DNA of 64,000 nt from Flaccisagitta enflata (taxonomy: Eukaryota): NCBI GenBank assembly GCA_965153355.1, contig OZ231126.1, forward strand, positions 49,290,001 to 49,354,000, in the 5' to 3' direction. The position numbers and the translations under genes were made by a program. Below the pieces are notes generated by a model. That model had not been told where the DNA came from, did no database searches, and saw only the letters and a program-made list of their open reading frames with translations. Every line of letters starts with the position of its first letter. The stretch's first letter is position 1. Shown here one piece after another: positions 15,109-55,596 of the stretch.

Positions 15109-15186
15109 AAGAAGGTATGACGCTGGAGAAAGAACGATTCAACAATTCATTGTTGAATAGATGAATTAGTTATCTTTGGATAACTA

Positions 15187-25534: not shown

Positions 25535-28500
25535 GACCCACCACAGATGTCACCATCTGTTTTATGCACTAATACTTTGCCTTCTAGAGGTTCTTCTAAT
25601 CTTGGAAAAACTTCGTCTGCTTTCATCTCTGTTTCATTGTTTCTTACTATTATGGTTTCTGGATTTGGCTTTCTACCCCTTCTTTTGGGTAATTTTGGGT
25701 CTGGTGCTTTGTTAGTTGGGTCTAAATCCTCATGTTCACTGGAATCCACTAACCCATTGTCCTTATCTTTGTCTTTATCTTTGTCTTTATCCTTGTCCTC
25801 TGGGTTGCGAAGTGACCTTTTTGGTTTTATTGACTTTTTACTTTTACTAGTGGATTTGTGTTTATCCTTTGTAGCAGGTGCACAAGTGATTTGTCTCACA
25901 TTAACCTCACGGGTTGATGGTGCTGCTGTGTATCGTTTGTGTTTGTTTTTCTTGTCTGATGTTACATTGGTATGTGATATAGATTTGATGGATTGATTTT
26001 TGATGAGTGGTCTGTTGTCTTTGCTTTCCATTTCGTCTGAATCACTACTGCCGGTGTCACTTGTACTCTCGCTGCTCGTTTCACTATCTTCAGATTCACT
26101 ACTTGAATCTTCGCTTTCCTCTGTTTTGCTACTGCCGGTTTCGCTTGTGGTACTTCCGGTTTCGCTACTTGTTTCACTGCTATCATTTGTGTCTGATGTT
26201 GTATTGGAGTCATCCGAGTCTGATGATGTGTTGCTGTCTGATGATATGGATGGGTTTGATAAATCAAACTCTTGATAATCAGTTTCTTCTCTTTGAGGAT
26301 GTACTTCAGCTTTTACTCTCCTTGTGTTCTGTCTCTGATCATCAGATTTGGATGTTTGCTCCTTTTTTCCTGTATTGTCTGTTTTTGGTTCCTGTTGCGT
26401 TCCCATTTTCTCATGTTTGCCTTTTTGATCTTTTCTTTTTGCCTTATCATTCTCGGGAGAATCATCTCTGCCTTTCGGCTGCTTTGATTCTTCCTTGCAT
26501 GAGCTTTTTGATTTGTGTTTTGATTTAGATTTTGTGTCATTTTTCTCATGCTTGTTTTCCACTATTTTTAATCCTTTTAGGCTCAAGGACCGGCTATTCG
26601 GTGCGTCACCGCCATGTTCTTCGTGCTGTTTTGGCGGGATTGTGGATTTTGAACTGACAGCGTCAGCCGTTTTACTTCCGGCTGCGCAGCTGTCTTCATT
26701 ATCTGTCGCGGCGGGATTATTTACTTCCGCGGCGCTATCATAAGTGTTTTTCCTTGAACGGATGGAACCTTCGCGTCTAATTGTCGTGCTCAGCTGAGTA
26801 TTACTGTATCGTGAATCTTTTGATGTGTCTCTTGAGCTAGACGGCATGTTTGTGTTATGGCTGCGCGAGCTCATTCGGCTCTGTCTTCCTGACATTTCAT
26901 GATTGTAATTTTGATAATTTGGATTCATGCCCGAATTATGTGGCATTTGCCATCCGAATGGGATTTGCGGGCCACCTTGCCAATTTTGTCCCATATTCAT
27001 ACTATGCATCATTGGGTTGTGATTAGATGGATGATTCATGGCTTGATTTATGTTTGGCATGTATGGACTGAACATCGGATATGAGACCATGTTGCGTGAC
27101 ATTTATAGATTCATGTTTCTTAAACTGTTTTGTGAATCATGTGCTGATGATTTTCTGTCATTCATGCTCCTTTTCCCTTCTTTTGCTCTCCTTTTACTAT
27201 GTTTGGTGTGATCAGTCCTTTCTTTCCTGGTCATTCTAGATGAATCAGGTGGTAGTGGATCATTCGCATCGCTTTCATTTTCATTCTTAGATTCACTTGC
27301 TAATTTTAATAATGCGGTGTGTTGTTTTACCTTTCATGACAGGCTGATTCGGTACCGAGCTGTCTGCGGGTTTAACTTCATTACTCTTTGCGTCTCTATC
27401 GTCGCCTGGGGATTGTCTACGGCGGCGATCGGATTTAGCAGACGCTCGCTCATTTTCATCATTCTTCTGCTTGGAACGACTGGATCTACGCTCACTTCGT
27501 TCGTCTTCGTTTTTGGATCTTACGGAACGCTCACTTCGTTCGTCCTCGTATTTGGATCGATCGGACCGCTCACTTCGTCCGGAATGTTTCTTGGATCTCT
27601 CGGACTCATGCTCACTTCGCTTCGCTCCGCCCTTAGACGGATTTGAGGTAAGCGACAGATCATTCAGCTTCTCAGACTTTTTACTAATGTCTTTTGAACT
27701 TTTCTTAGATTTCTTTGAATGTTTCTTTTTGCTGTTTTTCCCACTCTCATCGTTGCTAGATGAATTTGAGTTTATAGTCCTCTCTTCAGAAACACTTTCC
27801 CTGGTCTCCTCGGCTCTATCTTTTAATTTTCTCTTCATTTTAAGTGTTTCTTTGTTTTCATTGTCATTGTGAGTGATCTCTTGCATAAGATCATCATTGT
27901 CATCTACGTGATATGACAATTTATCATCGGGTATCGTGTGAGTGTGTGTGGGAATGTTGGAGGAATGAGCTTGGTTTTCGCCCTTGTTTTTGTTTCTCTC
28001 ACTCATGGTGTTATGTTTTTGCAAGCTCATTTCTCTGATTGGACATTCATCTTCACTATTCAATTTTAACCCATAAGGATCTTGTGCACTTTCACCTTTG
28101 GATTCATTATACTCAGTGGGATGTGTTTGGCCTTGATCAACTGTATCGTCATCAATATCGCTCACAAACCTGTCAGTGCCATCATCATTGCTACTGACGT
28201 TTGTTTCATTTTGTTCAGTTGTGTTGCTTGGTTCATTCGTATGTGGCTTTGCTTTTTCAAGAGTTGCGTCATCGTCGTGGCGACTCGTGACGGCTACGGT
28301 ATCGCTCTTAGACGATTCAGCCTCCTCATTTGAATCTTCTGATTCTTCCAGCGGACTGATTTCATCCGGATAATTAATAGCTCGTGACTCGCACATGACC
28401 GTGACCTCCTTTATGAGCTTTCTCAGGTCTTTCATTAGAAAGCATTCTCTATTGGTCATTTCTTCCATTGCTATTATTCTTTTGTGAATGTGGTGTATCA

Positions 28501-31500
28501 GCCTTTCCTTGATTCTAGTTTTGTCTTTTTCTTCTTCTTGGGCTGTTTCACCGTCTCGCAACTTTTGCCTTAATTTGGCTATGTCGCGTCTCAACTCCTT
28601 CAGTACTCTGACTGATTCACTCAACTCGTTGGCGCTGTTTTTGTTTTGATTATATTTATGCTCAGCTGCATCTTTCTCTAATTGTATGGCCTGTATTTGC
28701 ATTTTTAGAGACTCCATTGCCTCTTTTGCTGATGTGCATTCGGTTTTCTTATCTTCTAATTCTTTCTTTGCGTCATCATGGCGCTTTTGCAGTTTTTTCA
28801 GTTGCGTCTCGAGTTCTGTAACCATCTCTTCTGCGGCTTCTGTGGCGGATTTTTGCTCATCGAGTTCTTTTTCTTGTTACGCCCATCTGATGCGATATAC
28901 TTTCAATCTGTCATTCTCTTCTGATGTTTCAGATGTGGTTTTGCTACATCAGTTAATCGTGATTTTACAGCGGCTATTTCAGCTGTCTGTGCAGCATATT
29001 GAGCTTTGTAAAATTTATGTTGGCTCTCTTCAAGGACCACTTTGGCTTGCGCTTCATCCCGTTCATTTTTCAGCTCTGTGACCAGCTTTTTCAGCCCTTC
29101 ATTCATGTCTATGTTACCTTGGCTTGTCGCCATTAGGGCGTTGATACTTTGTTGCAGCTGGTCTGCGTTGTTTTTGGCTGTGTTTAATTCTTTTCTAGAT
29201 GCGTCTAGCTCTCTTTTAGCTGTGTCTCTCTCTCTTTTTGTGTTTTCTAACTTCTGATTCTTGTCCGCGCGTTCATTACTCCAATTTTTCAATTGGGTCT
29301 CATAGCTCTCTTTGGTTTTCTCATGTCTTTTCTTGAACATTTCTGTATCAGCTTTAGCCTTTTCCAGCTCTTTCTTGTTTAAAGCTAAATCATTGTTAGC
29401 TGCTTTCAGATTTTTGATGGCTTCTTCTTTTTCTTTATCGAGAATCTTGAACTTTTCTTTCATTTCTGTTATAATTTTTTCATTCTCTTTCATCATTCTG
29501 TCATGGGTTTTTGATTGCTTTTGGCATTCTAATAGTTTAGCTGCTTGTTCTGTCTGTAAATCAGCAAGCATTTTGGCTTGCTCTGTCTGTAAATCAGCAA
29601 GCATTTTGGCTTGTTCGGTCAACTCTACTGTATGTTTTTCGCGTTCTAGCTCAAGTGAGTCTTTAAGAATTTTATTCTCATTTTCATTTTTCAAGAGATT
29701 TGTCCTGAGTAGATCGACTTTCTCTTGACTTGTTTTCTCATTCGTCTTAATTTGCTCTTGCAGGGTTTTTAATTGTTTGTCCAGCTCTGCTAGTGCTTTA
29801 ACATTTCCTTCTTTCTCTGTTTTCAGTTTGTGTTCATAGTCTGTGATTGCTGCATTTGTTTCATTTGTGTTCATTAGAATTGTCATTTCTTTTTCTTTGA
29901 TCAATCTCTTGTCATTCTCTGCTTGCTCTTTGAGCTTGCTTATCTCTGCTTGCGCTGCTGTGATGGATGCTTCCACTTCTTTTCCTTCTCCTTCTCCTTC
30001 CCGCCTTGTTTGGGATGTTCTCAACTTGCTGGACAATTCCTGCAACTTTTCTTCTTTCTGTTTTACTACCGAGTTGATTTTGTCCAATTTTTCATTCAAT
30101 GCTTGCTCGGATAATTCTTTCTCTTTCATGATAGCAGCACTTACTCCATGTGCTTGCATATTAGTCTCCATATCCTTATTGAGAGACTCTATTTTCTCTT
30201 TGAGCACTGCTGCTTGTTCCTCTTTCTCTTTGGCAATATTTGCCTTTGTGGAATTTAACGCATCAATTTCTGATTTCAGACTGTTGATGTGTGTCTCATG
30301 TGAGTCTTTTATGCTTTCCAGATGGAATATTTGTTCATTCAGACCCTGTCTTTCTGTTAGCATTTCCTCTTTGTTTTTGACCAATGCGAAATAATCAGAA
30401 TTGGCTAATGATAAACCATTCTTTAGGTCATTATTGGATTCTTCCAATATTTCGATTTGTCTTTGCCAATTTTCTTCTGCTTCTGCTCTGCTTGCTTCCA
30501 AGCATTCTACTTTGTCTAGCAAGCTTTTGATTTCCTCTTGCAGATCCTTGATTACATCCTGATAATCAAGGTTTGATTCCGCCATGAATTGCGAGAACTC
30601 TGTTTTATTTTTATTTTCTTCTCGCAATCGGTCTTGTTCGTCCAGCTCATTTAATCTTCTCATATAGCAGTTCATCTCTAAGCAGAGAGAGAACTTATAG
30701 CGCGCTTCCGACGTGCGTGCGTTCGTTCGCGTGCATAAACTCTCAATGTCGTGCTTGTGCGATTTGCCATAGCAGACATAGCACCTGGACTCAAATAATG
30801 AATTGCCTTCTTCGCTCACCGGTTTTCTTAATTTCCACACCACTTTTTCGAGTGTGATAACCGAGAGCTTTGTCACATCGCCTTTTAGGAACTGATCTTG
30901 TATAGACAACAACGTCACAAGTGTTGGTTCCCCTTTTAGCCAGTCATCGTAGTCAGGAGCTGATTTCTCCTGTTCAGCCAGATCAGTATATGATGGCGAT
31001 CTGCCAGATACTGCAATTTGGTCAGGCGATGGTTCATCAGAATTCCATGTTTCTAATTCTGTTTCTAGTGCCAGTTCGATTCTAGTTCTACGTTTATCTG
31101 GGAACTCTTGGACATCCATGGCTTTTCTCATTTTTGTCAGGTCAAGGCTTCCTAAGATTGCTTGGATGTCGTTTGGATTGCTAATTTTTAATGGGATTTG
31201 TTCCTCAACCGTCAGTATGCCGTCATCTGATCTCTTATTTAACGGTTTACAATGTTTTGATACCCATTTTCTATGGTGGATATTCTGTGGGGAACCATAC
31301 CTTTTGAAGTCTTGGTTTTGGGATAAGCTGGCGTGTTTATGGCTGGCGAATGTCGCACCTTTGAGGATGAGCCCGTTGCCCGTGTTTTGTGCTTTGGTGC
31401 TTTTTCGCCTTTTGCATTGGAGGGCGGTTGTTTTGGCTGAGGCGCTTTATTTTCCCGTGTTGTTGTCGTCTTTGTTGACTCTGTTGATGACGCTGAAATC

Positions 31501-32374
31501 TGGTTTGGATTTGGCGGTGCTCCGCCGGATAGCAACGCTGCTGTGAGCGGTGTCATCGGGAATTTCGGCGACCCTGCCTTGGCCGCCTTTCTAGCGGCTC
31601 CGTGGGATTGCGTATCTGCTGACTGGGATAAGGTGGTAGAAATGTTAGATGGTTTTGATTTCATTGATGACTTTTTAGGGACATATGGCTCTGATCCGGG
31701 TTTGCAAGTCATCAATTTCTTTGCGTGAGGCGGCAATCTTTCCATCACGGCTTCTATTGGTACGCCTTCAAAAGTCTCGGTCATATTTCTTGTTTTACCG
31801 TTTATGTCAATCGTGCTCATTTGTACTGTCAATGAGTCGTCTTCAAATTGTGTCATTGAAAATGATTGGACTTGTTGTAATTGATCGTCTATGTCTAACT
31901 TACTCTGTTGCCTAGCGCTTGATGTTGTGCTCGCTTGAGCGTACGTTTCGCTTCCTTCCACCTGTTTTGGAATGGTCTCGTCAGCGTCAAGGTCTAATTT
32001 TGGAACGCGAATTTGGTCGTCACAGTCCGTTATGTTCGCCTGAACGATCGCTGGCGATTCTGTAGTTGAATCTCGATCCGGTATGTTCGCCGGACCAGAT
32101 GTCGGCGTTCCGTCTACGCCTGAACGATCGCTGGCGATTCTGTTGTTGAGTCTCGATCCGGTATGGTCGCCGGACCGGATGTCGGCGTTCCGTCTACATT
32201 AGCGCGATCTGGTATGGTCACCGGACCGGATGTTGGCGCAACGGATGGTTCACGCAGTTGCGTCTCGTTGTCGGTGTTGGTATCGTGTTGTTCATTCAAC
32301 TCGTTACTGACTGACGGACATTCATTGCCGTCATTTGCATTGCCGTCATTTGTGTCCATTTTCTCGTCATCCAT
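25535..32374 (-). pseudogene. Long N-terminal extension of Gag (~2280 codons; low-complexity plus ~900-aa coiled coil), broken by a few indels and a stop
   Basis: ORFs of 86, 240, 742, 510 and 534 aa are collinear on the same strand. Frames overlap at the breaks (4-nt loss in a tandem repeat at ~32117, shifts at ~31300, ~28900 and ~27300, TAA at 27103-27105). The last ORF ends in LVHKTDGDICGGS, which continues into the gag core. Confidence 0.7.
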
Positions 32375-32816: not shown

Positions 32817-35630
32817 TCATGCTTCGTCGGAGCGCCCTTTGTTTCCGTCGCTCTCCACTTCCTCATCCTCCTCGGATGCATTATCCGGATCTATTTGAAG
32901 GATCTCGCTCGCGCGCTCTTTTCCACTTTCTTTACATATTTGCAGCCATTCGGGGTCCCATTTTTTCCATTCTTCAGGATCTTTCAACTTTTCTGCTCGG
33001 CTTTTTATTTTCTTTTCCATTTCTCTGTATCTTTGATATTCAGCTTTTGCGTCTTCACACACTTCATGCATTATGTCATTCATATCTCTGTCTGTCATCA
33101 GATCTTTTATTTCCTCGATGAGCTCTTTTTCTATCTTTTTTCTGTAATTTGCCAATCCGTCTGGGCCTAGGCGGAAGGCTGCGTCCCAATACGATTCCAT
33201 CTGCAATCTGACAGATCTAGTATGTGTGTTATTTGTTGCAAGTGAATCGTTCACATCGCTTAATAGCCTTGTTCGGCCCCCCAAAGCGGATGGATGGACG
33301 CCGATGAACTCTTCATGATAATCTGAAATATCATTTCTCTTCTTCTTGACGAATAATCTAGGGGCATTTATTGTTGCACTCACCGCATGAGTGTTTTTCA
33401 CCCCGCATTGGCATGTGGCTTCAGAGTGCTGCTGCAGCTCTTTGTTTACTTTTCTCAATGTTTTTCTTATTTTGCATGCCATTTCGTGTTTTGATGGTAA
33501 TTCGTCAGTCATTTCTAATTCTGTCATTTTGTCTTCTTGTGATAGTTCACATTCACTACATTCCTTCCCCTTTTTGTGCTCATCTTGTCTCTTTATTTCC
33601 TGCAATATGCCCATGAGATAATTTGTGATTCCTTCTTCAGGTGGGGGTGCTTCCTCTAGTTGTTTTGTGATCGAGAAAAGCAATTCTACCCCTGGTTTTG
33701 GTCTTTGTATGGATGGGTTGTTGTCAAAATCTTGTTTTTTTGTTTTGACAAATTGCTTCATTGAATTGTCCTCTCTTATGCGTGCCAGCTTTTCTCTTTC
33801 TGCTTGAGCTTGCGGTTTATTCATGGATCTGTTTTGTTGCTCAAGAGATTTTTCTCTAGCCTTCTTTGATTTTCTGTCAAGCTTGAACAATGTCATGATA
33901 AATTTCATGATTTGTTTTTCTGCTGATTTTGTGTATTCTTCATTGACAGATATATCATCTGGCATTGCAGGATTAGCACATGCGTGTGTTGTGCTTAAAT
34001 CTTCATTTTCATGTTCATGGGAAGAGGGCGTTGACCCCTCATCGGCTGAATTGGTTGTTGTCTCAGTGTCTGAGTCATCACTTGCTATGGTTATGGCACT
34101 GATTGTACCTGGCTGCCAATTATCGTTTTCATCATCACTGGACTCTGAACACGTTGTGACCAAGTCAGGTGGATTATCTGAATCATCGTCATCGTCATAT
34201 GAACGAGAGCCTATTTTCAGCTTTTTGCTAGCATCAGCCTTCCTCCATTCGCCATTTATATTTTCCCAGGTGCCATCAGTTAGTTTTTCACCCAGTTTAT
34301 GTTTCCGGCCGATGTCTTTATCTGGTTTCTTGACTCTGAATTTCTCAATTGCTTTTCTGTCTGTTATTTCGAATTTGGACGACAGAAAGTTTGGTCTATG
34401 TAATTTTGCAATTGCTTCGCTGTTGCATCGTCTTTGGTGCGTCCAGTTGCACCTTTTTTCACTCTCGTTATCGGATGGTGAGGAGTTATCTGGTGTTGGC
34501 TCATCTTCCCATTCCATGATTTGTGTTCTTTCACGCTTTTCTGCCGATTGGCGTAAGCGTTTCTCATTCTCTCTTATTTTCCTTAAGCATTTTGATTTTT
34601 CCTTATTAGGAATGGAAGGATCATTAAGAACATTATCTCGTCTTATGGTTGTCAAATTGCTGATGATTTCTAGACGGTTTTTATGGACTTCTGCTCTTTA
34701 GTCTAGTAATTTCTGATGCTCAGTTTTGGTATTGTTATTCATTTCAGTGTTCATGAGCTTAATCTGCTCTAACTGAATTTCACGGTAATTTTGTTTTGTG
34801 TGAGCATGTTGAAGTGACTCATTAAGGGCCTGGTCGTGAATTCTCATTCGCTTTACTATCTCCTCTTGGGGCAGATTTTGCTCTTTTGCTTCCTCCTCTG
34901 CCTTTTTCGCTTCCTCTACCTTTTTGTCCATAATTTTGGATTCACGGTCACTGCTTTCAATGACCTGTTCAAGCATGTCAAGGTCTCTTGTGCGTTTGTA
35001 ATTTTCTAGTTTCTTCTTTACATCTATATGATTTTTGATGCATTTTTGCTCTTTCTCGATTGCATCTGCAGATTCCTCTTTCTGTCTCCTTTTCTTTTGT
35101 GCAATCGTTGCTGGTTCAAGGCCCTTTGAGGTCTCTTCTATGAATTTGATACTTTGTGTACATTCGTCCTTTTTCCTCCTGATTGTTTCTATGCATTGCT
35201 TAATTTGCATATCTTTATCATCAATCTTTTTTTGAATGGAGTCGAGAATATTTTCTCTTTGATATTTGCAATGTAGCTCTCTGTATTGCTTTAAAGTTGA
35301 CTCCATTTTGGCAAGTGACTCTTTGCCCACTGCATAATTTTCATCCCGCAGTTCTTTCAATCTGTTAAGGGTTTTGACCTGCTCTCTTCTCCATGCTGGG
35401 TCATCATCTCTTGGGTTGATTGTCCTTAACAATTCTTCTGCGGCCTTGTATTCATTTTCAGCTTCTCTGTAGCCTTGGTCTAATTTTTCTCTGTTATCTT
35501 CTACCTCCTTCTTGCATACTTCAATCAATGCTTCTGTTTGATTTACTTTTTCATTCAAATATTGAATGATTTGCTTTCTTCTTTTGTATTTTGTTGTTTC
35601 ATCCTTATTTGGAACCTGGTGGTTGGCCAC
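32817..35630 (-). CDS. Additional ORF upstream of gag (>930 aa, one in-frame TAA at 34698-34700); charged/coiled-coil, unknown function; 5' end cut by the fold-back apex
   Basis: The 333-aa and 612-aa ORFs are in the same frame. Separated from the gag-extension ATG by a ~440-bp non-coding spacer. Confidence 0.65.
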
Positions 35631-35639
35631 AGCGTGCGC

Positions 35640-42760: not shown

Positions 42761-45700
42761 CAGACAAAGATAAAGACAAAGATAAGGACAATGGGTTAGT
42801 GGATTCCAGTGAACATGAGGATTTAGACACAACTAACAAAGCACCAGACCCAAAATTACCCAAAAGAAGGGGTAGAAAGCCAAATCCAGAAACCATAATA
42901 GTAAGAAACAATGAAACAGAGATGAAAGCAGACGAAGTTTTTCCAAGATTGGAAGAACCTCTAGAAGGCAAAGTATTAGTGCATAAAACAGATGGTGACA
43001 AAACTGTGGTGGGTCGACAGATATGCCACAGTACCGTTAGTTAATGAAAGCCGGCGAGACAATCAATTTCAAAACTCCAAAAGGAAAGGATGAGATTCTA
43101 CAAAAAAAATGACGAAAATGGCCACCATTGATTTTGGGGCAAGAGTGTATCCCAACATGACATATTCTGCCCAAAAAATGGTATTTTCATCAATTTTGGG
43201 CAAAAAAATGCCAAATAACAGTCCTACCGATTGTTGTGAGTTTAGGTCCCTGACACCATCAACTTCAATTGCTTATAGCTTCTAAACAAAAAAGGTTGGA
43301 AAAACGCGGTTGGCAGCATTTGAGGGAGAAACTGAAAAATCCTTTCAGGTAGCACAAATTTGACTAAATTGGTTCATAAACAGCGGTACAGTGTATCTCA
43401 AAGTACAGCAAATAGCAAATTCTATTTTTTAAGCTCTTTCACAGCCATAACTTTGATTGCTTATAGCTTCTAAACGAAAAAAGTTGGAAAACCGCGGTTG
43501 GCGGCATTTGAAAGAGCTGAAAAAATCCTTTCAGAACAGTCCAATTTGGTTAATAAACAGCGGTACAGTGATCTCTCAAAGTACAGTGAATTTTGAATAT
43601 TCAGTTCTCTCACCACCATCAACATTGATTGCTTATAGCTTCTATACAAAAAAGTTTGAAAAACGCGGTTGGCAGCATTTGAAGGAGATGGAAAAATCCT
43701 TTCAGAATAGCATGAATTTTGTCCAAATTGATTGATAAACAGCCGTACAGTGATCTCTCAAAGTACAGCTTTTTTTTTTCTTTCGCCACCAACAACTTTG
43801 ATTGCTTATGGCTTCTGAGCTAAACAAGTGACGCGAGGTCACAATATTGTTGCGGACGGATGGGCAGGGGCATCCATCCCCCTTACCCCAATCCCACACC
43901 CACCCTCCAACACACTCAGACACAAACAATTCCAATTGCAGCATCATGAATATGCGTTTTTGGGCAGCGGCCAGAGGACCTATGCTTTCACATATGCAGA
44001 AATTTCTCCTCCTCCTTCTTCTTCTCCTTCTCTGTACCCACCCCCCTACCCCCTTGAGGTCCAAATCCTAGCCTTGAGGCTCAAATTGAAGCCTCAAGGC
44101 TCAAATCCTAGCCTCAAGGCTCAAATCCCAGTTCTGAAGCTCAAATCCCAGCCAAAAAAGTGATTGATGGACATTATTTTTGTCAGAATTGATTGGATAT
44201 TTGCAATTGGTCAGATCCCTCTGAAGAAGTCTCTATTTTAAGTCGCGGACTTGTACCACCATTTATGACCGATTTTGATAAAATCCATGCTACTCTAAAA
44301 AAATATTTTAAGTCGCATGCTACGTGACTCCACCCCGCTTTGTTGGTCCGTCCGTCGGTCCGTCGGTCCATCTATCCGTTGGTCCATCACAATTTACTTT
44401 TTTGGGGTTCTTGTGGTCTTTGGCCTCACTGCTCCTGCCCAAGCGATCAAGTGACCTCAAATACAGCTCCCGCAAGCGAGGGAGGTAGCCGTGTATCCGG
44501 CCTTGTTTCAGCTCTTTCAAGTGCCGCCAACTGCGATCTTGTAACTTTTTAGTTGCGGACACACAAGAGGCTTTGTCCGTCCGTTGGTCCATCGGTCTGT
44601 TGGTCACGCTCGAGTTGTCACGCTTGAGTTTAAAAATGAATAGTAGCGAAAGCGTTAGATGGTTAGCGGTACCCGGAGGCTGGAATTTGATCCTGTAGGC
44701 TGGGATTTGAGCCTGGAGGCTGGAATTTGAGCCTGGAGGCTGGGATTTGAGCTTTGAGGCTGGGATTTGAGCTTCATGGTTGGGATTTTGGCTTCAATGC
44801 TGGGATTTGAGCTTTGAGGCTGGGATTTGAGCCTCGAGACTATGATTCAGGCCTTGGGACTAGGATTTGGGCCTCGTCGAGACTAGGATTCAGGCCTCAA
44901 GACTAGGATTTGGGCCTCAAGACTAGGATTACAGCTTCCTGGCTGGGATTTGAGCCTTGATGGTGGGAATGGGGCTTAGAGGCTGGGATTTAAGCTGGGG
45001 CTGGGATTTGAAGGCTTCAGGCTGGGATTTTGAGCTTGTGAGGGCTGGGATTTGAGCTTGAGGCTTGGATTTGAGCCTCAAGGCTAGGATTTGGACTTCA
45101 AGGGGGGGTGGGTACAGAGAAGGAGAAGAAGAAGGAGGAGAAATTTCTGCATATGTGAAAGCAATTGTGCAATTGTGCTGCAAGTGGAATTGTTTGTGTC
45201 TGAGTGTGTTGGAGGGTGGTTGGGGGTGGGATTGGGGTAAGGCTGGGGGATGGATGCCCCTGCCCATCCGTCCGCAACAATATTGTGACCACGCGTCACT
45301 TGTCTAGCTCAGAAGCCATAAGCAATCAAAGTTGTTGGTGGCGAAAGAAAAAAAAAAAGCTGTACTTTGAGAGATCACTGTACAGCTGTTTATCAAGCAA
45401 TTTGGACAAAATTCATGCTATTCTAAAAGGATTTTCCATCTCTTTCAAATGCTGCCAACCGCGTTTTTCTAACTTTTTTTGTATAGAAGCTATAAGCAAT
45501 CAGAGTTGATGGTGGTGAGAGAACTGTATATTCAAAATTCACTGTACTTTGAGAGATCACTGTACCGCTGTTTATTGACCAATTTGGACAAAATTTGTGC
45601 TGTTCTAACTGAAAGGATTTTTTCAGCTCTTTCAAATGCCGCCAACCGCGGTTTTCCAACTTTTTTCGTTTAGAAGCTATAAGCAATCAAAGTTGATGGT

Positions 45701-46422
45701 TGTGAAACAGCTTAAAAAATAGAATTTGCTGTACTTTGAGAGATCACTGTACCGCTGTTTATGAAACAATTTAGACAAAATTTGTGCCGTTTGGAAAGGA
45801 TTTTTTCAGCTCTTTCAAATGCCGCCAACCGCGTTTTTCCAACCTTTTTTGTTAAGAAGCTATAAGCAATTGAAGTTGATGGTGTCAGGGACCTTAACTC
45901 ACAACAATCGGTAGGACTGTTATTTGGCATTTTTTTGCCCAAAATTGATGAAAATACCATTTTTTGGGCAGAATATGTCATGTTAGGATACATTCTTGCC
46001 CCAAAATCAATGGTGGCCATTTTCGTCATTTTTTGAGACCACCTCCATTAGGCCCTGCAATTTGTCCAATTTGGTGCCGCTGCCGTACCCTCATGAGGCA
46101 TCCCTCCCACCCACCCACATGGTCACCTCCATACGTGTTTTTTCTATCCAACAAGCCCAAAAAATGTGCTTAATGTTGAAATTAAGAAGGAAATTTGAAT
46201 TTTTTAAGTATGAGGGTGGTAATTCAATTTTGCTCATTTTGAGGCTGAATATGTCAACTTTGTTGAGTTTTTGTAGTCTCTGGGCAACTCCCCTAAGCCT
46301 TCTGAGGCTTTTTTCCCATTGTACACACGTAATACCGCCCCCAAACTTCCGAGTGGCATGATCAAAGCAAAATCGGCATTTTTTGTACACCTCATGGTGA
46401 CATCTGTGGTGGGTCAACAGAT

Positions 46423-47739
46423 ATGCCACAATACCGTTATTTAATGAAAGCTGGTGAGAAAATCAATTTCAAAACTCCAAAAGGAAAAGATGAGATTCTA
46501 CACTTCAAAAAGATGATAAGAGAATTCATCCACACTATGAAATTAGCAGGCAATGACAAGATCAGAATGTATACAATCATAGCAGTCTTCAACACCATGG
46601 CAGAGGGCTACAACCATACACTCGAAGGCATGCTAAAACTCACTTGCACATTTCGCTCATTCCGGCACTTCAGTGAAATCTTCATCACCACACAGTGGCC
46701 TAATATTTACCAACATACCTTGTTGGTGGCCCGGTGGCTCTGTCAACTCCCGTCCGACTCGATAGAGACATACTATGAGAAACATGTTGCAGTCCATTCC
46801 GAATTGGACAGACCGATCGACGAGTCCGTCGAAGCTTTCGTAGATGGTATCCACAGCGATGAACTGAGAGAAAAAGTAAGATACCATGATTACGGCGAAG
46901 AAAGATCACTTGCAGACGTAAGAGAATATGCGAGCAAAATGGCTCAAAATCTGAAAATGGAAGCAGCAAGAAGAAAAGAAATTGCAAGTAGAGGCCGTGG
47001 CAACCAGCAATTTAACAACAACAACAACAGACGGGGCTTTGGAAGATACAACAGAAATAACTTCCAGAGCAGATCAATGAATAACGCAAGAAATAACGGA
47101 TCATTCGGTAGAGGTCAATCGGGAAATTTCCGAGGCCGCACAAGAGGCAGAGGCCGGATATTTAGAGGCCAAGGCCAAAGGTCTGTAGCCTCGGCCGACA
47201 GGACTCAATGCGGCAGATCGAGATCAATGAGCCGAAACAGAACATCCAGCTATGGATCAAAAAGATTCTCGAGATCAAGAAGTGGATCTAGGGCAGGGTC
47301 ACGGTCAAGCTCAAGATTCAGCTCGAGATCACGGGGTAGCTCGAGATCGAGACCCAGCTCTGGATCACGCTACTCATCTAGATCAAGAAGCAACTCAAGC
47401 CACAGATCAGGAAAAACAGTGAGATTCCAAAACAGAGGTCGTGGCAGAGGCAGAGGAGGTGCCGCTGTGAATAATGGCAGATCAAATGGAAATTACAGCC
47501 CATCTAAAGAGGAATCAACAAGAAAGAAAATGAAAGAATTTGGGCTCAATGGTTGCACAGGTTGCCTTTCCAGAGAGCACGTCTTTGACAGATTTAAATC
47601 GTGCGACAGGTCATGTCCGTTCTGTGAGAAAGAGTTTGATGAAAATGAAAATAGGCACTATGCATTCAACTGTAACAAGCGCCCGGAAGAGAGGCGAGAA
47701 TGCTTGCAAATTCTCAGCGAGCATGCTAGCAAAAGATGA
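46423..47739 (+). CDS. gag: Ty3/Gypsy Gag core: capsid-like region, RG/RS-rich basic tract, two Cys/His knuckles
   Basis: MHR-like QLPSDSIETYY...FVDGI; C-terminal CTGC-x4-H-x7-C and CPFC-x10-H-x4-C; directly upstream of the protease. Confidence 0.85.
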   Translation: MPQYRYLMKAGEKINFKTPKGKDEILHFKKMIREFIHTMKLAGNDKIRMYTIIAVFNTMAEGYNHTLEGMLKLTCTFRSFRHFSEIFITTQWPNIYQHTLLVARWLCQLPSDSIETYYEKHVAVHSELDRPIDESVEAFVDGIHSDELREKVRYHDYGEERSLADVREYASKMAQNLKMEAARRKEIASRGRGNQQFNNNNNRRGFGRYNRNNFQSRSMNNARNNGSFGRGQSGNFRGRTRGRGRIFRGQGQRSVASADRTQCGRSRSMSRNRTSSYGSKRFSRSRSGSRAGSRSSSRFSSRSRGSSRSRPSSGSRYSSRSRSNSSHRSGKTVRFQNRGRGRGRGGAAVNNGRSNGNYSPSKEESTRKKMKEFGLNGCTGCLSREHVFDRFKSCDRSCPFCEKEFDENENRHYAFNCNKRPEERRECLQILSEHASKR

Positions 47740-47743
47740 CTAG
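47737..47743 (+). promoter_or_regulatory. Putative stop-codon readthrough signal UGA-CUAG between gag and pol
   Basis: TGA 47737-47739 is followed by CTAG and the frame stays open into the protease (47848 is +108 nt, same frame). Identical in the inverted copy (20786-20792). Confidence 0.75.
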
Positions 47744-50700
47744 CTGCAAGCAAAGATTCAGGACAGATCAAAAAGAAAACAGAAACGGACACGAAACGGA
47801 AAACGGTAACAATCAATACAATAGATGATTTATCAGGGAAATATTATGTGAGTGGATATGTGGAAGGAAGAATACTATGTGCTTTCATTGATACAGCGGC
47901 AGACTTAAGCCTTATCTCACACTCATGGAAAAGATATGGTAAAACCACCAATCTAAGAAAGAATATCAAAATAAGATCATTTGATGGCAAATCAAAACAG
48001 ATTTTAAGAAAGACTGTATCATTGAAAATTAATTTTGGTAACGTTGCAGTGAACTTGAAATTCTACCTATGCAAAACTAAGGCACCTATAATAGGCGTAG
48101 ACCTATTAAGGGACCCAAAATTGAATTTATCAATTAATACCAAAAATGAAAAATTCTATATTGATCAAAGATCAATGAAAACTGCAAACAATGAAATCAC
48201 ATCAGATGAGTTCTTGCATAACAGAATTGACCAAGCAAAAACTAACAATGAAATCCGCAGAGATAACACACGGATAAATTGGATAAGGTCAAAGCAAGAT
48301 TGCATATTGAAACCAAACAGCACAACAGACATCATAAGCAAATGTGATCAGAAACCAACAAAACATGAAAAGCAATCATTGTTATCACTATACGACAATG
48401 ACAACGATGACATATACATTCCATCGATGATAGTGTGGTCACCAGAAAAAGAAATTGTTATAACAATCGAGAACAAAACAGACCAAAAGCTGTTAATGAA
48501 AAATGGTACACCACTTGGTGAATTGAAACCATGTACTGACACCATAAATCACAGATCGGTCATGGCATTTGATTATCATGACATACAAGAAGCATTCAAA
48601 CAAATAAGAAATGAAAAGGCCGAAATAAATAATGCTTCTAAAGTTGAAAAAGGCGCCAAATCAAAAACATACTACGTGAATGAGTGCACTATCAAATCAC
48701 TAGTCGACAAACATTCATACACAAAAAGAGTGCATTCAGAAAATAATCCTACCTGTAGGTTAATGAATAGCGCAGCGATTGAAGTCGGCAGCCAAAGTAG
48801 CGCCGAAAAAGCCAAAGGAGGTAGGATTGACGCCTCCGGCTCCAATGAGTCCCACGCGCTTAAAGCGTTTCGGGCGTGCGACCGCGTGGAAGACCAAATA
48901 ATCGAGAATACCGCGCACAAATATTCACTAAGAAGTGAACGCGGAGATGAAAATATTCCAATCGCAGGTACCGAACAATCAGGCATGCCTGTAAATAAGA
49001 AAATTCCGGATAAAGTCAATCAATACAGTGATCATCGCCTATCAGGGGGCGAACTTGCAAGCAATGTTGTCAAAAATGACAACGACAGGCGCCGCCGGGG
49101 TCGACCTGAAAGGCTGAAGAAAGGACGTCCACCAGATATATCTATATATAAAAATGCTTCCGAAGGTCAAACAGACGGTCTAGTAGCCCGCGAAGAACCT
49201 ATAAAGGAAAGCATTAGTGAATACAGTAAAAACCTCGAGGAACAGGAACGCAATGATCAAAATACCCAAATACCACCTGCGTTACCTGCAGATGAAGAAC
49301 CGATGAGATTATCAGAATTAATCGGAATGAATAAAGTGCCATCTGAAACACTTACCAAATGTTACAAAGATGGCATTACCATAGATCTTGATCTAAATGT
49401 GAACGAACCTGACATTGATATAGATGAATCACCAATCAATGTCGATTATGAAAGAACAAGAGGTCAAGATTTCAAATACTGGCCAAACAAACATGAATAT
49501 TTGAAACAATTTGACCTAACGTCAGTTGAAGGCAAGGATAGGGAAAAACTGATCAAGATTTTACTAGATTTCAATCACATTTTCTTCAATGAGGACAGAC
49601 CTGACCAATTCTTTAAAGGCGTGGAGATGAAGCCAATAAAAATCAAATTGAAAGAAGACGCTCCTCCATAAAAGAAAGAAGGACCAAGACGCATCAGCTC
49701 CTCCAAACTCCCATACTTAAAGGCTCACCTGAAGCAGATGTTGGAAAGGGGAATCATTGAGGAGATGTCTGATGACGTTGACTGTCACATGTCGCCAATC
49801 CATGTCGTTCTAGAATCCAGATTCTACAGCAGCCTTAAAAGAAATGTAATAAAATCTAGATTCTGTCTTGACAATCGCGTTTTGAACAATTCCCTAGCTG
49901 ATGTGCAATTTCCCTTGCCTCTGGCAGAGGAGTTCAGGAGAGAAGTGGCCAAGGATGGCTACACTACGTTCAGCAACTTTGACGCTTCCCAAATGTTCTA
50001 CCAATTCAAAATAGACCCAGAAAGCGTCAGGAAATACTTTGGATTTTACGCCCTAGGTAGAGTATACCTACTAAAAAGATTGGCTATGGGCCTAAAAACA
50101 AGTATCAGCTATGTGCAGAAATTTATGGACAAATGTTTCAGATCACACAAAAACTGTATTCCATTTGTTGATGACCTCAGCATCCGGTCAAAAACCATAA
50201 ATACACACTTAAACATTGATCTCCCACTAGCGCTCGCTATCTGTAGTAAGTTTAATATACTTCTTAATCCTAAGAAGTCAGATTTACTCAAAAATGAAGT
50301 GCGCGTGCTGGGATTCCAGCTGGGTAGATCAAGTGAATCAATAGCTGACGAAAAAAAGACAAAAATTAAGGAAATGACATTTCCTGAGACCAAGAAAGAT
50401 GCAATCTCAAAGGCAGCATTCTTTTCATATTTTCTGCCTGTAGCGCCTAAATTGTCACACCTCATGGCACCACTCAGAAGACTGGCACACCCAAAGACAA
50501 GATTCAAACCAACAGAGTCGGACAAGAAATCATTCACAGACCTTAAAGAATACTTGTTGGACGATGAAGTGGGTGCAGTGAGAATGCCATCAAATGACAA
50601 AGAGGCCACAATCCTCATATGGACAGACAGCAGTAGCACATCAATCGGATGCATCATAACTCAATTACTGCCACCACTACCAGATTCCAAATTGGACCCG

Positions 50701-52914
50701 ACCAAGAGATATTTATCCATAGTGGGATGTTACAGCAGAAAGATTGAAGACAGTTGGTCGGTTTATCCAATTTGGATTCTTGAACTGACAGCCTTGGAGG
50801 AGTGTACGAGGAAGTTTTTTTGGCTGTTGGCAGGCAGATCTTTCTATGCTATTACTGATAATACTACAGTGACAGCATGGGCCTCACTGGATCACGTCCC
50901 CAAGGACGTGGCCAGGATGGTCCTGAGGCTCCAAAGATTTGATTACAGAATCCTATGGATAAAATCAGAACTAAACCTGAGCGACTGGATTACAAGGGTA
51001 CCAGTCGACAGCCCACCAGAGGCGAGGTTTCCAAGATTTTTGGCAGGCAGTATCTACGATGGTAAAGGCAAAAACATTCCATGGCAAAAATTATTTTGCA
51101 AAGCTACAGCTCAAGAAACTAAAGATTTCTTTACCAGGAAACGGCGACAGGAGCTGGCCCACGCAGTGGAGCCTGAGAACTTCATTATTCCAGACGAATG
51201 TGAAGCGGAACAAGAGGTGAAGGAAATCATTAACGCCTTGAAGTCGCCGCCGGAAGTCCACGGCGACAGCAGCGACTCAGCGACAAAATCCGCGAAGGAT
51301 GAATATGCGAAAGTCATAGCCGCATACTCCTTGACTGATGATCAGGTAGAGGGCGGCGAGAATGAACTGGAAGAAGATACAGAAATAGACAATGATATTA
51401 CAGCAAAAATTAAATTGCACAGATTCAAAGGTAATAGACTTGAAGGCGTAAAAAGTCTGCAAGAGAATGATGATGCAATTATGGATATCATTAGTCGAAT
51501 AAAATCAAACCAAAAAGATCCACCTAAAACAGAAAGTTTGATTCTAACCCCAGCATTGAAACATTACCTGAAAAACAAATCATTATTCAGGGTGAGTGAG
51601 GATGGTATTTTGCTGAGATTATGGCACAACAAAAACGGCAAAATTGACCAATTAATAGTAGTGGGTGAAAAGAAATTTCATCAAGTTGCGACAGAAGCAC
51701 ACCAACGTATTGAATCAGCACACCGTCACGCCGGTCAAAGAAGGACATTCCTAGCACTGAGCAGACGCTACTTTGCAATTAATATGCGCGCAATTATAAA
51801 TAAGGTAGTCAATAATTGCGCGACATGCAAATTAAACAAATACCCACGCACAAATGCTATTAAGACAGGTAACAAAATCGCCACAGGTTGCAATGAAAAA
51901 GGAGAGATAGACATCTTAGGACCTGTAGGCGGCTTTGGGTCATCCACCACTGGTCAACCACGCTACGTCTATTTTTATATAGACTTGCACAGTCGTTACA
52001 CAATCACAAAAATAATCCCCAGTTGTGCAGATAACCATATACTAGACAGTCTAATCTACACAAGAGACACACTCTGTGGACTGCCAAAAATATTGCAAAT
52101 GGACAACGCACTTTGCTCATCAAACAGTAATTCAGCAAAATTCCTTAGAGAGAGAGGCGTTGAAATCAATCATGGCATGGCAAACATTTCACGCTGTCAG
52201 TCAGCAGTCGAAAGGTCCATAGGCACATTAACAAGACTAATCTGTAGCCTAAGGACGGACAATCCAAAATGGTCATTTACCAGAATTGTAGCCGAAGCCA
52301 CATATATTGCCAATTCAACACCACACACAAGCCTTCCAAACTCACTCTCACCTAAAGAGATCCATTTCAATGTCGCTCCATCAGATTTCCTAATCCACCA
52401 ACATGAGAAGGATGAAATGAGCGACGACGCAGCGGGCGCCGCGCGAGCTGCGAGCCGTGCCACGCTGTTAAACGATGTGAAAAGATCCCTAAAAAGAAAT
52501 GGAAATACAGGTGTGACTGATTATACTAATAAAATCAGACCAGGAATGATATGCTTGAGGAAAAGAACATCTTTTCCCACTTCAAGCCCAAGAAAATTAT
52601 GTTACAAGATAACTTTTGAAGGCTACATGGTCACATCAAAGGTAGCAACAAATTCATTCCGCTGCAGGAACATAAAAACCAATCAAGAATCAATCATTCC
52701 AGGTGATCTATTAGTCAAAATGAAAGGTCTCACCGAAAATGAAGCCATCGAGCTGATAAATGAGATGGAAAAAGTAGCCGCAAAAGAAGCAGAGGCGACG
52801 ACTACCCCAGCCAAACAAGGGGTAAGACGCTCAACAAGAATAGCCGCCAAAAAGGATAAAGCGGCGCCAATAACAGATCCAGACTTGAGCGCATTCTTTA
52901 CAGTCCATCTCTGA
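47740..52914 (+). CDS. pol: Ty3/Gypsy Pol: protease - spacer - reverse transcriptase - RNase H - integrase (one in-frame TAA at 49669-49671)
   Basis: PR FIDTAADLS; RT RFCLDNR, NFDASQMFYQ, LAMGL, PFVDDL; RH WTDSS...ELTAL...ITDN...SDWITR; IN H..H..CATC and DILG / QMDN / VERS (DDE). Order RT-RH-IN indicates Gypsy. The 607-aa and 1058-aa ORFs are in the same frame. Confidence 0.95.
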
Positions 52915-53026
52915 TTTCTTGTTATTATAGTTTTCTTGTTATTATAGTTGGCTACTTTTAAGGAAAAAGAAATAGACGGGGCCTAAAAGGATAATGAATT
53001 GAATAAAATCAAGAATTAAACTGCCC

Positions 53027-54840
53027 CTAGACATAAGAAGTGCCAACTCGAGAGCGTTGCTCGAGTATCTCATTATCCGTCAGATTGCGCCCTTCGCCAA
53101 CTGGCGGCTGACGAGCGTTCACGCCATCGTCCATGGGGACGCCATCAACGCCGCCACCGAACCGCCGATCACGGAAATCCTTCAAACGGGCCCAGAGGCC
53201 ACTGAACCAGTTGACCATATGGGTGACCTTTTCCAGATGTCCGGTCACGGCAGCCACGGTGACGACAATCAAGGCCGCCCCCAGGATCGGATAAGCGATC
53301 CAGCTACGCCAACCACCAGATGACTCGGAGGCGGCCACCAATACAGTGGGACCGGGCGCCACTGTACAGGGGACTTAGTGAACAAGTCCAAACTGGACTG
53401 GAGCTTTTAGAAAGCTTCCAAAAACAAAGTATCATGTTTTTTATTTTAATAAATTTCAAGAAATTAAGAAATGTGCACTCAGACTGGAAAATGAGGCTGA
53501 CTCCACTCCAAATAAAAGACCAGTCACAAAGGAAAATCTCCAAAAAAGACTGAAGAGGAAATGAAGGCCTAAACCACATTGGCCATGGAGCATAACATAA
53601 AAGGACCGGCCTCCCCTGAGGTAAAAAGACAAGTCTGAAATTAAAAAGCCGAAAGAGAAATATTTAAACCTATATTAAACCCGCCGGAGCTAACATGAAA
53701 AATTGACCTGTAATGCCAAAACATATGAGATTAATAAATTATTAGCACAAGAGACACAACTGAAATGGCATTAATAAGAATAAGATCATCAGGTCAATAC
53801 GAGAGGACATAAAAACCAATTGTCTATGCGGGTGCCACAGAATCACCATCGGCGACAGACACAGATTCATACGGTATTTCTCTATCAGACTCATTTCCAA
53901 GAGCGGCACGAGCAAGGCCAGGACCGAAGCCTTGAGAGGCAACCACGTTTTCAAGTGCTGACTTAATGCAGGCCTCCAATCTGTAAATACAAATGATTAA
54001 GTTTCAAAACCAGAAAATCATGCCCTGCAAAGTGAATAATTATGCCGAATGCATGAACCTGTAAATAAAGGATTAGACAGAATAGAAGCAAAAACTTACT
54101 CCAATCTAGCCGCAAAAACGTCGCGAGGGTCGCGAGTATGCATCCCGTCGCAAGGCAAACGCAGTCCATCATGATGCGTCGAGTCCGCGTTGGACCGACT
54201 TTTGAAACAAGCGATTTCCGAATGATACTCAGGTAGGGCACTGCATTGGCGACAGCGACGGTAGCTGATACCATATTCTTCAGTCTGATTGACATCGTCC
54301 GATATTATTTCTTGAACTGTGTTACGAAGGAAATTAGCGTTCATAGGAACGCAGCGCGAAAGTCCAGCGCTATGATAATAGGCCATGCGATAAACGACGA
54401 GCATACACGGCCCATTTTCCTCGCTGAAAATAAAATGGCCGCATTATGACGACAATACTGAACGAACCGCATGCGAAAGAAAAAAAAGCGTGGCCGAAAA
54501 ATTGCAAACTTACTCGTATCCTATCTCTTGGAGAAAAGCCTCTTTTCCACCATCTAACAAAGTCTTAATAGAGACTTGATTGCGAGAGGCCCATTCACGA
54601 ACTGCATATTTCAACTTGGCCTGTGTAAATATACGCAATCAGTATTAAAGACCGACGACGTGAAACGAAATATTCGTGACCGACGATCGAAACCGAAGAT
54701 AAAAAGAGACACACCGTCGGTGATTCATCCTCAGAGGAACGTGAAAATGACACGTAATGCGTAGAGTTGGCCGATCGCGAGCGTCGCATAGAGGCGCTTT
54801 GCGCAGAAGCGACGAGTAGAAACAATAAACAGAAGAGCAT
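53027..54840 (-). CDS. Antisense five-exon gene encoding a predicted 341-aa type I membrane glycoprotein
   Basis: Exons 54840-54715, 54620-54514, 54423-54100, 53980-53847, 53361-53027. All four introns are GT..AG with pyrimidine tracts, and phases 0,2,2,1 join into one open frame. N-terminal signal peptide; TM segment WIAYPILGAALIVVTVAAVTG. Confidence 0.72.
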
Positions 54841-55374
54841 CTTCGATGGATGTAATTCGAAAAAGAGAAGACGTCGATATGAAGACTTTGGACTGATCGT
54901 CCCGAATTATTCGTACGTTATATTTCACTTGTGTAAAGAGTGACCAAGAATTGAAATGAAAACTTATGAAAAAGAAAAGCAAAAATATTAATTCAGAAAA
55001 TAAATTTATTTTAAGAAATGTAAAAAGAAACACAATTCTTGGGAACTCAAATTGAATGATATTATGTTTATTATAATTCTCACATAGAAAGTGTCAAATG
55101 ACCACCCGAAATGTTCTTTAAAAACTCTTGAAGGTCAAACCAAAAGTATTTCGCCGACGAAAAAAATTTTACACTTTAAAACCTTAAAATGTTATGAATA
55201 CCGAAAATACTCAAATTGTTACAATATTTGCCGATACGACTCTCAAGACCATTTTAGTCATACGTATTGTTATTACTACAATTGTTACTTGAAATTAATT
55301 CTCTATTTGACCGTTAAGATATTATTGTTATATAAAAGACTCCGCTCAACTGAATCAAGCAGACTCTTTTTGTC

Positions 55375-55596
55375 GGGGGGGAGAGTCATAAAGGGTACCG
55401 CTCGACCAGAGAATAGAAATGCCAGACTCCGGAAATCATTTCTTATGATTATCGGATCAAATTCCAAGAATCAAGGAATATAAAAAGCTTGATTCGGTTT
55501 GAGAAGGACCTCTTCTATCGGAAAAATTCCTCTTATTATTTCCTCTAACAGTCCAACAGTCCTTCAGTTGCTTATCGAGATAGCTAATTCTCAACT
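55375..55596 (+). mobile_element. Putative polypurine tract (55375-55383) and short 3' LTR (~55384-55596, AGT...ACT)
   Basis: GGGGGGGAG immediately followed by AGTCATAAAG; TATAAAA at ~55479; unique sequence ends ...CTCAACT exactly where the satellite begins. No 5' LTR is in the window for comparison. Confidence 0.5.

Follow-up and report, generated by a model that had tools for sequence, protein, structure and literature searches.

A 64,000-nucleotide stretch of the Flaccisagitta enflata genome (GCA_965153355.1, contig OZ231126.1, positions 49,290,001 to 49,354,000; hereafter the window) contains a broken copy of a giant Ty3/gypsy retrotransposon, whose family we call f1. Full-length copies elsewhere in the genome indicate that f1 is almost certainly a real, recently mobile element of 26.4 kb, roughly three times as long as usual, in which a series of upstream open reading frames (ORFs), a giant Gag, Pol and two antisense genes for predicted membrane proteins lie between 213-bp long terminal repeats (LTRs). 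The best explanation as a whole, which we regard as probable, is that the window holds a damaged copy of this mobile giant, that Pol is expressed by stop-codon readthrough, and that the antisense membrane genes may aid cell-to-cell movement of particles in place of an envelope.

A reverse transcriptase (RT) search of the host genome assembly (G000; 794 Mb, 9 contigs) scored 150 places, 21 of them at an identity of at least 91%, and six f1 copies were retrieved, each 10-kb stretch being analysed separately. Up to half of the sequence words of the element occur in marine metagenome runs, in keeping with a host that is probably a planktonic animal of the sea. In seven of the 21 close copies, Pol is a single open frame of 1,723-1,724 codons. 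The copy on contig C5 (G000:C5:45661216-45687609) spans 26,394 bp and has 213-bp LTRs, the target-site duplication CCCT, a primer-binding site and a polypurine tract. It encodes, in order, ORF-A (242 aa), ORF-B (238 aa, overlapping ORF-C), ORF-C (2,178 aa), a spacer of ~430 bp, a Gag of 2,696 aa, a TGA codon and a Pol of 1,724 aa; 3' of Pol, the natural f1 copies carry the two antisense membrane-protein genes, the polypurine tract and the LTR. A copy on C4 (C4:5849735-5876144; 26,410 bp, target-site duplication AAAC) has a C5-like layout, with a Gag frame of 2,709 codons and a Pol frame of 1,723 codons, and a copy on C1 (C1:106602075-106643840), interrupted by several insertions, also retains both LTRs and a target-site duplication (ATGG). 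The C2 copy reaches ORF-A without a 5' LTR, and a second C4 copy and one on C9 lose the match inside Gag. The LTR pairs of the C5, C4 and C1 loci are identical at 210/213, 212/213 and 212/213 positions, and differences at only three, one and one of 213 positions imply recent insertion. Target-site duplications of 4 bp occur at these three loci and in five other families of the clade described below. A preliminary description of the window had reconstructed a Gypsy element of at least 19 kb, disrupted by a fold-back and an insertion and encoding a Gag of ~2700 aa and a Pol of ~1720 aa, and while the fold-back and insertion are confirmed in the window, the natural copies bear out the Gag and Pol sizes.

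The upstream ORFs of the window copy could in principle be a separate element, or a host gene, joined to an ordinary Gypsy by nesting or misassembly. The window copy is indeed rearranged, artefact-like assembly sequence adjoins it, and ORF-C of f1 has no Pfam match. The full-length copies nevertheless refute this idea, to which we give practically no credence: LTR pairs and target-site duplications enclose all of the ORFs at three independent loci, Gag is a single open frame from its extension into the capsid domain, and families whose RTs are only ~48-60% identical have the same layout. In two uninterrupted copies, moreover, the 5' LTR and primer-binding site lie ~10.3 kb upstream of the Gag start, with ORF-C enclosed, and an LTR adjoining the gag core was found in none of the retrieved copies. 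The preliminary proposal that the upstream ORFs belong with gag therefore stands. Its ORF0 of more than 930 aa is a real upstream ORF, although the full-length version has 2,178 aa and is preceded by two further ORFs, and its count of four genes fell short of the six to seven ORFs under selection.

Every one of these ORFs is under purifying selection between f1 copies, with a ratio of non-synonymous to synonymous divergence (dN/dS) of 0.02-0.30 overall. Compared with the C5 copy, dN/dS is 0.13-0.25 for ORF-A, 0.22-0.30 for ORF-B, 0.13-0.16 for ORF-C, 0.20-0.25 for the Gag extension, 0.04-0.12 for the Gag core, 0.05-0.08 for Pol and 0.11-0.17 for antisense ORF1. An off-frame stretch of ORF-C behaves like a control, with dN/dS of 1.5-2.0 and many stops. 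Pfam places the domains of Pol in the order protease (PR), RT, RNase H, integrase (IN), the protease match being weak (E 0.002). The primer-binding site pairs, with a bulge, at -25.7 kcal/mol with an abundant tRNA-like 3' end, which we take to be that of tRNA-Leu. No exact tRNA complement of this site was found, and, as a point against the reconstruction, ARAGORN called a tRNA at none of seven loci with the putative primer end. One region, G000:C4:75.73-76.07M, has tRNA-like 3' ends in a dense cluster (~50 among the matches listed).

By RT sequence, f1 is one of at least 11 families in this genome that constitute an isolated Ty3/gypsy clade of elements from 10.5 to 27.6 kb. Ten further families were sampled from the RT list, and counts out of 11 refer to these plus f1. 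Their LTR-to-LTR sizes are 10.5, 11.9, 12.0, 15.1, 19.2, 22.3, 26.0 and 27.6 kb, alongside 26.4 kb for f1; in the other two, one copy is internally deleted (11.7 kb) and one has no 5' LTR within the retrieved stretch. The LTR pairs of the sampled families are 99.3-100% identical, LTR lengths across the clade are 213-365 bp, and, among the ten families with both LTRs, the termini are AGT...ACT or ATT in nine and TGT...ACA in one. Four of these ten sit in (AC)n/(GT)n microsatellites (L063/L064, L067/L068, L118/L119 and L124/L125), which hints at a target preference.

An RT-RNase H tree unites the 11 families with 27 unnamed database proteins (SH-like approximate likelihood-ratio test (SH-aLRT) 99, stem 0.77). 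Compact families form the earliest branches; the 15-19-kb families with a RING-finger ORF share a branch with SH-aLRT 99 with the giant families (22-28 kb), which are nested, and all four giants lie on one side of a branch with SH-aLRT 99. The tree comes from a quick IQ-TREE search, without bootstrap, of 64 of 65 rows (P0003 was too short and was dropped), and its outgroups are unnamed rather than Ty3/gypsy reference clades, nine of the ten outgroup clusters looked up being nameless and one a 'hypothetical protein'. In-clade rows score 435-726 bits, compared with 185 for the best row outside. Against the PDB, the f1 RT matches Ty3 RT best (117 bits), nearly tied with an 'Enzymatic polyprotein' (8r0s; 114), followed by foamy virus (81) and murine leukaemia virus (47-52), and the top Atlas clusters for the RT are of the type RVT_1 + RT_RNaseH. 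One database homolog of antisense ORF1 matches nothing in G000 at more than 63%, which implies that the lineage extends to other genomes.

A stop codon separates Gag from Pol, and UGA readthrough is very likely the means by which Pol is made. TGA-CTAG stands at all 13 f1 gag-pol junctions read, several of which are copies of one duplicated locus. An in-frame TGA-C is present in 10/11 families, continuing as CUA in four, CGG in one, CAA-UYA in three and other C-starting codons in two. Eight of these ten thus fall in CUA, CGG or CAR-YYA contexts, and UGA-CUA, UGA-CGG and CAR-YYA are contexts reported to stimulate readthrough (PMC3159437). The junction of the eleventh family, F198, was unreadable.

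The capsid assignment of Gag rests on structure as well as sequence. An AlphaFold model of the domain has a pLDDT of 78, and its top 38 structural matches are all retroelement capsids, the best with a Z of 11.1 and a root-mean-square deviation of 2.2 over 86 residues (VIA-align); Foldseek with the same model returned nothing at E<=0.001 in PDB or BFVD. A CxxC-H-C motif occurs in all nine Gag N-termini, at residue 43-75 in the four Gags from elements of 15 kb or less and at residue 294-650 in the five larger ones. Behind it, the order is a coiled-coil-like stretch with linkers, the capsid domain, an RG/RS-rich stretch and Cys/His knuckles. This common layout implies that the giant Gag is an elongated form of the shorter ones, 2,700 aa instead of ~730.

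The three compact families have no ORF-C; elements of 15 kb and larger do, and in these it measures 638, 1,114, 1,531, 1,861 and 2,178 aa. In the 15-kb and 19-kb families it starts with a RING finger (Pfam E 2.8e-6 and 0.001, respectively), and two giants have homologous Cys/His residues at this position, so that a RING-type start is found in four of six families but not in f1 or the 27.6-kb family. Two further blocks, one of them C-terminal, are common to five families, the 638-aa ORF-C showing the RING only. The C-terminal block has 44 genomic matches; for 31 of them, pairing by hand places an RT match on the same strand 9.4-18.2 kb downstream. AlphaFold gave a poor model of the conserved N-terminal block (pLDDT 56, pTM 0.22, mostly long helices), and a domain search with ORF-C returned only eight unnamed proteins. 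Our best guess, by analogy with the ubiquitin-related domains of Burro and the CERV protein of Cer1, is that ORF-C might be a counter-defence factor derived from a ubiquitin ligase or an RNA-export factor (PMC6431247, PMC10309623). The size of these elements may have grown through addition of a RING-finger ORF upstream of gag together with lengthening of the Gag coiled coil and linkers. Two CCHC zinc knuckles in the ORF-C of the 26.0-kb family (L058:7151-10000 (+), Pfam E 9e-5) possibly form an RNA-binding module outside Gag. The 27.6-kb family has two extra large ORFs upstream of ORF-C (700 and 1,303 aa, Gln/Pro-rich and coiled-coil; L111:1366-7666 (-)) with no match to Pfam, ORF-A or ORF-B.

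Just past pol, on the opposite strand, all 11 families encode antisense ORF1, a protein of 124-143 aa with an N-terminal sequon and one hydrophobic segment after 33-46 residues. Ten of the 11 carry an NxTD/S motif and nine end in Val, the others in Ile or Leu. In f1, the sequon is followed by the transmembrane (TM) segment, a predicted amphipathic helix, the NxTD motif and the terminal Val. These topologies were derived from hydropathy, sequons and charges rather than from a TM predictor. A profile search found 57 homologs, all unnamed. The preliminary description had recognized one antisense membrane gene, which is present, but there are two. Its characterization of the element as virus-like was not borne out: the C5 copy has no ORF longer than 160 aa between pol and the LTR, and no Env Pfam match, and with it no F-type or gB-type Env homolog, was found in the ORFs scanned.

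The second antisense gene, upstream of antisense ORF1, is likely to be a spliced glycoprotein gene, as judged from its sequence; in f1 it would comprise four exons, which encode a signal peptide, a short segment, a Cys-containing TM segment and a tail. Across seven copies, the ratio of non-synonymous to synonymous polymorphism (pN/pS) is 0.07, 0.04, 0.08 and 0.20 for these exons in order, and 0.83 and 0.46 for two of the introns. All six predicted splice sites are intact in 8/8 f1 copies. Within the first f1 exon lie the signal peptide, a basic site of RxxR type and a sequon. Among 502 ORFs searched, the TM exon was detected in nine families at E<1e-12 and weakly in two more (0.04 and 0.56), and an AG in the same phase precedes it in 10/11 families. 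Several observations count against this gene model. The first supposed intron has a pN/pS of 0.19, on eight changes, leaving the structure between the first two exons uncertain; neither antisense gene has a Pfam match; and an Atlas search with the TM exon gave only sub-0.9 leads. Two metatranscriptome runs yielded short, shallow contigs in which the predicted splice appeared in none of the 15 joints listed (of 310), too sparse a sample to bear on splicing or expression, and one RNA contig enters a predicted intron, although the contigs are strandless and this one could be sense RNA or DNA. A short stretch between the two membrane genes, with an AG in front, is conserved between f1 and the 19-kb family (L011:5130-5190 (+)) and is possibly a further exon or a cis-element.

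These features suggest a possible life cycle. A transcript of ~26 kb starting in the 5' LTR would be packaged and reverse-transcribed from a tRNA primer and the polypurine tract, and integrase would leave a 4-bp duplication. Gag sits behind ORF-C and would need a subgenomic mRNA, spliced or internally started. The antisense cassette could be transcribed from near the 3' LTR; because it is antisense to the genomic RNA, its introns would not be spliced out and could be kept through successive cycles.

For the role of the antisense proteins we consider three proposals. One is that they carry particles from cell to cell in place of an envelope, a role we put forward tentatively; it ranks slightly below an accessory role taken broadly, and it is the single most specific hypothesis. 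By hydropathy, all 11 antisense ORF1 proteins have the size and topology of FAST proteins (60-210 aa, one TM segment, an ectodomain of 10-50 aa and a tail of <150 aa), and the hydrophobic moment is at least 0.54 in 10/11, a value without a null model. A small TM protein replacing Env has precedent (bioRxiv 10.1101/2025.03.14.642691). Two features argue against transfer: the MGxxxS/T motif for N-myristoylation occurs in none of the 11, and only five have the polybasic signature of at least three K/R within 15 aa of the TM segment. It is quite possible, instead, that these are accessory proteins that modulate the host, through surface down-regulation, exclusion of related elements or PDZ-type tail signalling, and that the element moves only intracellularly. 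Such a role would suit the C-terminal Val, Ile or Leu of all 11 proteins, the cytosolic position of the NxTD/S motif in ten, the only partial agreement with FAST proteins and the expected independence of antisense expression from genomic RNA; the antisense ORFs of Retand in plants have likewise been proposed to be regulatory (PMC11963269). It accounts less readily for a cassette that occupies the env position in 11/11 families, and for a TM and amphipathic-helix layout that fits sORF2/FAST proteins in size and topology.

A further proposal, that f1 is an endogenous virus with extracellular particles, in which gene 2 would serve as a minimal envelope, or to bind a receptor, and antisense ORF1 would assist it in fusion, seems improbable to us. 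The signal peptide, RxxR-type site and sequon of the f1 first exon, together with a conserved Cys pair and a TM segment, speak for it, as does the existence of related families in other genomes. The predicted gene 2 ectodomain, however, is only ~135 aa, far below those of known class I-III fusogens, and Pfam shows no homology to F-type or gB-type Env.

The window copy itself is folded back as an inverted duplication, centred near 35630, and its two arms (19103-26032 and 42565-49414) share 92% identity (Table 1). Its right end consists of the polypurine tract and an AGT...ACT LTR finishing at position 55596. The preliminary description held the 5' end to be missing, and mapping of a natural full-length copy onto the window sets the loss at ~7.3 kb. 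Stops and frameshifts affect ORF-C, Gag, Pol and both antisense genes. On the right arm, the Pfam matches to RT, RNase H and integrase are clear and those to Gag and protease weak. A self-tblastx of the window gave only noise.

Table 1 Features of the f1 copy in the window, with positions numbered from its first nucleotide
Feature	Position	Strand	Remarks
ORF-C, 3' 43% (residues 1240-2177 of 2,178 aa), coiled-coil-rich accessory	32817..35636 (mapped 35636-32823)	-	one internal stop; cut by fold-back; tblastn 93% to C5 copy
Giant Gag, N-terminal part, residues 1-2256	25535..32374 (mapped 32374-25534)	-	CxxC-H-C motif, long coiled coil, charged low-complexity linkers; several frameshifts and stops
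Secondary insertion, 3.4 kb, left arm, ~1-kb terminal inverted repeats, very high-copy repeat	22155..25534		
Left-arm Gag core, UGA and Pol start, truncated at 19103	19103..22158	-	
Degenerate inner fold-back arm, likely nanopore base-calling artefact of inverted duplication	35631..42565	+	
Secondary insertion, right-arm counterpart	43113..46393		
Gag core, with capsid domain, an RG/RS-rich stretch and a C-terminal pair of Cys/His knuckles, ending TGA-CTAG	46396..47739 (core 46396-47736, TGA-CTAG at 47737)	+	dN/dS 0.04-0.12; AlphaFold and structural matches
Pol, in frame after UGA: PR-RT(FVDD)-RNase H-IN	47740..52914	+	internal stop at 49669; Pfam
Antisense gene 1, 133-aa single-pass membrane protein (predicted)	53027..53428	-	frameshift near 5' end in window copy
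Antisense gene 2, predicted spliced type I glycoprotein	53824..54840	-	signal-peptide exon 54718-54840; exon 54516-54620; TM exon ~54096-54425 (frameshifted); tail exon 53824-53979
Polypurine tract	55374..55383	+	
3' LTR, 213 bp, AGT...ACT	55384..55596	+	99% to 5' LTR of C5 copy

Nanopore sequencing probably created the degenerate inner arm, which is thus unlikely to be real sequence. It measures 6,935 bp against 9,599 bp for its left counterpart, 32% of whose bases are deleted; the losses are evenly spread (27-38% deleted per kb; 872 deletions and 239 insertions), A>G substitutions outnumber G>A (187 vs 106), and the ratio of transitions to transversions is 1.24, compared with 2.2 and about a dozen deletions between natural copies. 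In nanopore reads of inverted duplications, the second arm is shortened and miscalled (PMC7229812), and the even loss, A>G excess and low transition/transversion ratio of the inner arm match that description. The same three features make it unlikely that the arm is real DNA eroded by palindrome-stabilising deletions. That interpretation would account for the recurrence of the same degenerate arm, 99.9-100% identical, at loci on G000:C3 and C4, and for outer arms that differ by alleles common to other loci, although an assembler could have reused one consensus at several loci. Read depth over the inner arm and the element body is 3-42 and ~2,400-6,600 in one organism run, and 0-3 and 59-120 in a metagenome, but these runs share half of the window words, come from other individuals and are not counted as evidence.

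C3 and C4 carry nearly identical copies of the whole folded unit with its degenerate arm, and the flank past the window LTR is common to seven other loci, over more than 17 kb at one. These recurrences imply that the window copy was spread by a larger duplication, or by the assembler, rather than by its own retrotransposition. A unit of at least 50 kb, with the broken element and its 3' flank (window 19103-64000 and L052), is found on five contigs in copies that are 97-100% identical but end at varying points on either side (G000:C1:80.60-80.63M, C1:85.48M, C2:80.43M, C3:5.10-5.16M, C3:90.89M, C4:38.64-38.69M and C8:9.84M). It may be a segmental duplication, a product of an unknown carrier or a result of assembly reuse; the one 10-kb flank listed showed no transposase ORF.

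Other repeats accompany the element. The secondary insertion, with additional fragments at 18259-19105, is non-coding, and its terminal inverted repeats of ~1.04 kb consist of tandem units of ~185 bp and 20 bp; the 20-bp-repeat core is extremely abundant (read depth ~1e6), and gag-sequence duplications of 34 bp and ~121 bp flank the insertion. Arrays of a 46-bp tandem repeat occupy window positions 55591-55794, 56755-56895 and 58582-59781, the element being inserted at the start of one of them. A large Helitron-type element (6487-15108 (+); 1,725 and 1,147 codons split by one stop) has Pfam domains of GDSL-like, DUF6570, Rep, PIF1 helicase, endonuclease-like and UCH cysteine-protease type, with palindromes on its 3' side (15185-15745 and 16056-16673).

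Other Ty3/gypsy elements share some features with f1. Plant Ogre/Tat is said to have an extra ORF upstream of gag, as f1 does. Its size comes mainly from LTRs of 1.9-6.5 kb around an internal region of 11-13 kb (PMC6431247), unlike that of f1. Retand has antisense ORFs between pol and the 3' LTR, like f1, but they encode a predicted DNA-binding TRP28 domain rather than membrane proteins (PMC11963269). Planarian Burro/GYPSM1 resembles f1 as an animal Ty3/gypsy element with an internal region of ~25 kb, coiled-coil (Smc-like) and zinc-binding accessory domains and, in one species, an upstream accessory ORF; it differs in its long LTRs (total >30 kb), an N-terminal Gag within a polyprotein of ~5,000 aa, an in-frame Env-like region and BIR, BCL2 and MATH domains (PMC6431247). 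By contrast, the f1 clade has LTRs of 213-365 bp and small antisense membrane genes, and f1 has no Burro-type polyprotein: ORF-C is separate, the 2,700-aa Gag carries its capsid C-terminally, and a UGA stop precedes Pol. This comparison is one of layout, not of RT.

Parallels to the membrane genes come from the Drosophila MDG1 group, which is likewise Env-less and encodes FAST-like sORF2 proteins, small, single-pass and N-out with a cytosolic amphipathic helix (bioRxiv 2025.03.14.642691). The sORF2 proteins are 63-107 aa and mostly myristoylated (bioRxiv 2025.03.14.642691), whereas antisense ORF1 has 124-143 aa, lies downstream of pol, carries a sequon instead of MGxxxS/T and is accompanied by the second, predicted spliced gene. 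Cer1 of C. elegans, likened to f1 here by description only, has a Gag that starts with a coiled coil where matrix would be, and a large accessory protein, CERV, needed for export of genomic RNA (PMC10309623); ORF-C differs from CERV in its frequent RING start and in the lack of a Pfam match to a G-like domain. Errantiviruses and Oikopleura Tor have a membrane glycoprotein gene past pol, as the f1 clade is predicted to have, some of their clades have a tRNA-Leu primer-binding site, and Tor has internal promoters; their Env is large and of F or gB type (PMC13524379, PMC4402516), and no such env ORF was found in f1. LTR pairs separated by more than 14 kb were left out of the errantivirus survey, which therefore had no way to detect the giants (PMC13524379, PMC4402516). 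No published description of the f1 family was found in the literature searched; Repbase, Dfam and GyDB were outside that search, and an unnamed deposit is possible.

Transcription, RT processivity and capsid volume have been regarded as setting an upper limit near 10 kb on retrotransposons. The internal regions of f1 (26.0 kb) and its 27.6-kb sister family (27.1 kb), flanked by LTRs that are 98.6-99.6% identical, equal or exceed the 25 kb of Burro, the record cited in PMC6431247, in a layout unlike that of Burro, Ogre or Retand. We suggest, with some hesitation, that these families belong to a deep, undescribed lineage of animal LTR elements that uses a two-protein, intron-bearing antisense cassette for spread between cells, and that has grown stepwise from 10 kb to a record internal size of 26-27 kb through a RING-derived gene and a giant coiled-coil Gag.

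More broadly, surveys that limit the distance between LTRs to 14 kb miss elements of this kind. The presence of recently mobile relatives from 10.5 to 27.6 kb in one genome makes the scaling of Gag length and capsid size with genome length directly testable. The clade-wide antisense cassette provides new candidates for envelope-independent spread and, if spliced as predicted, shows how an LTR element can retain an intron-containing gene. If the cassette does mediate spread between cells, it would represent a third route to infectivity, within a natural series that bears on the limits of retroelement genome size.

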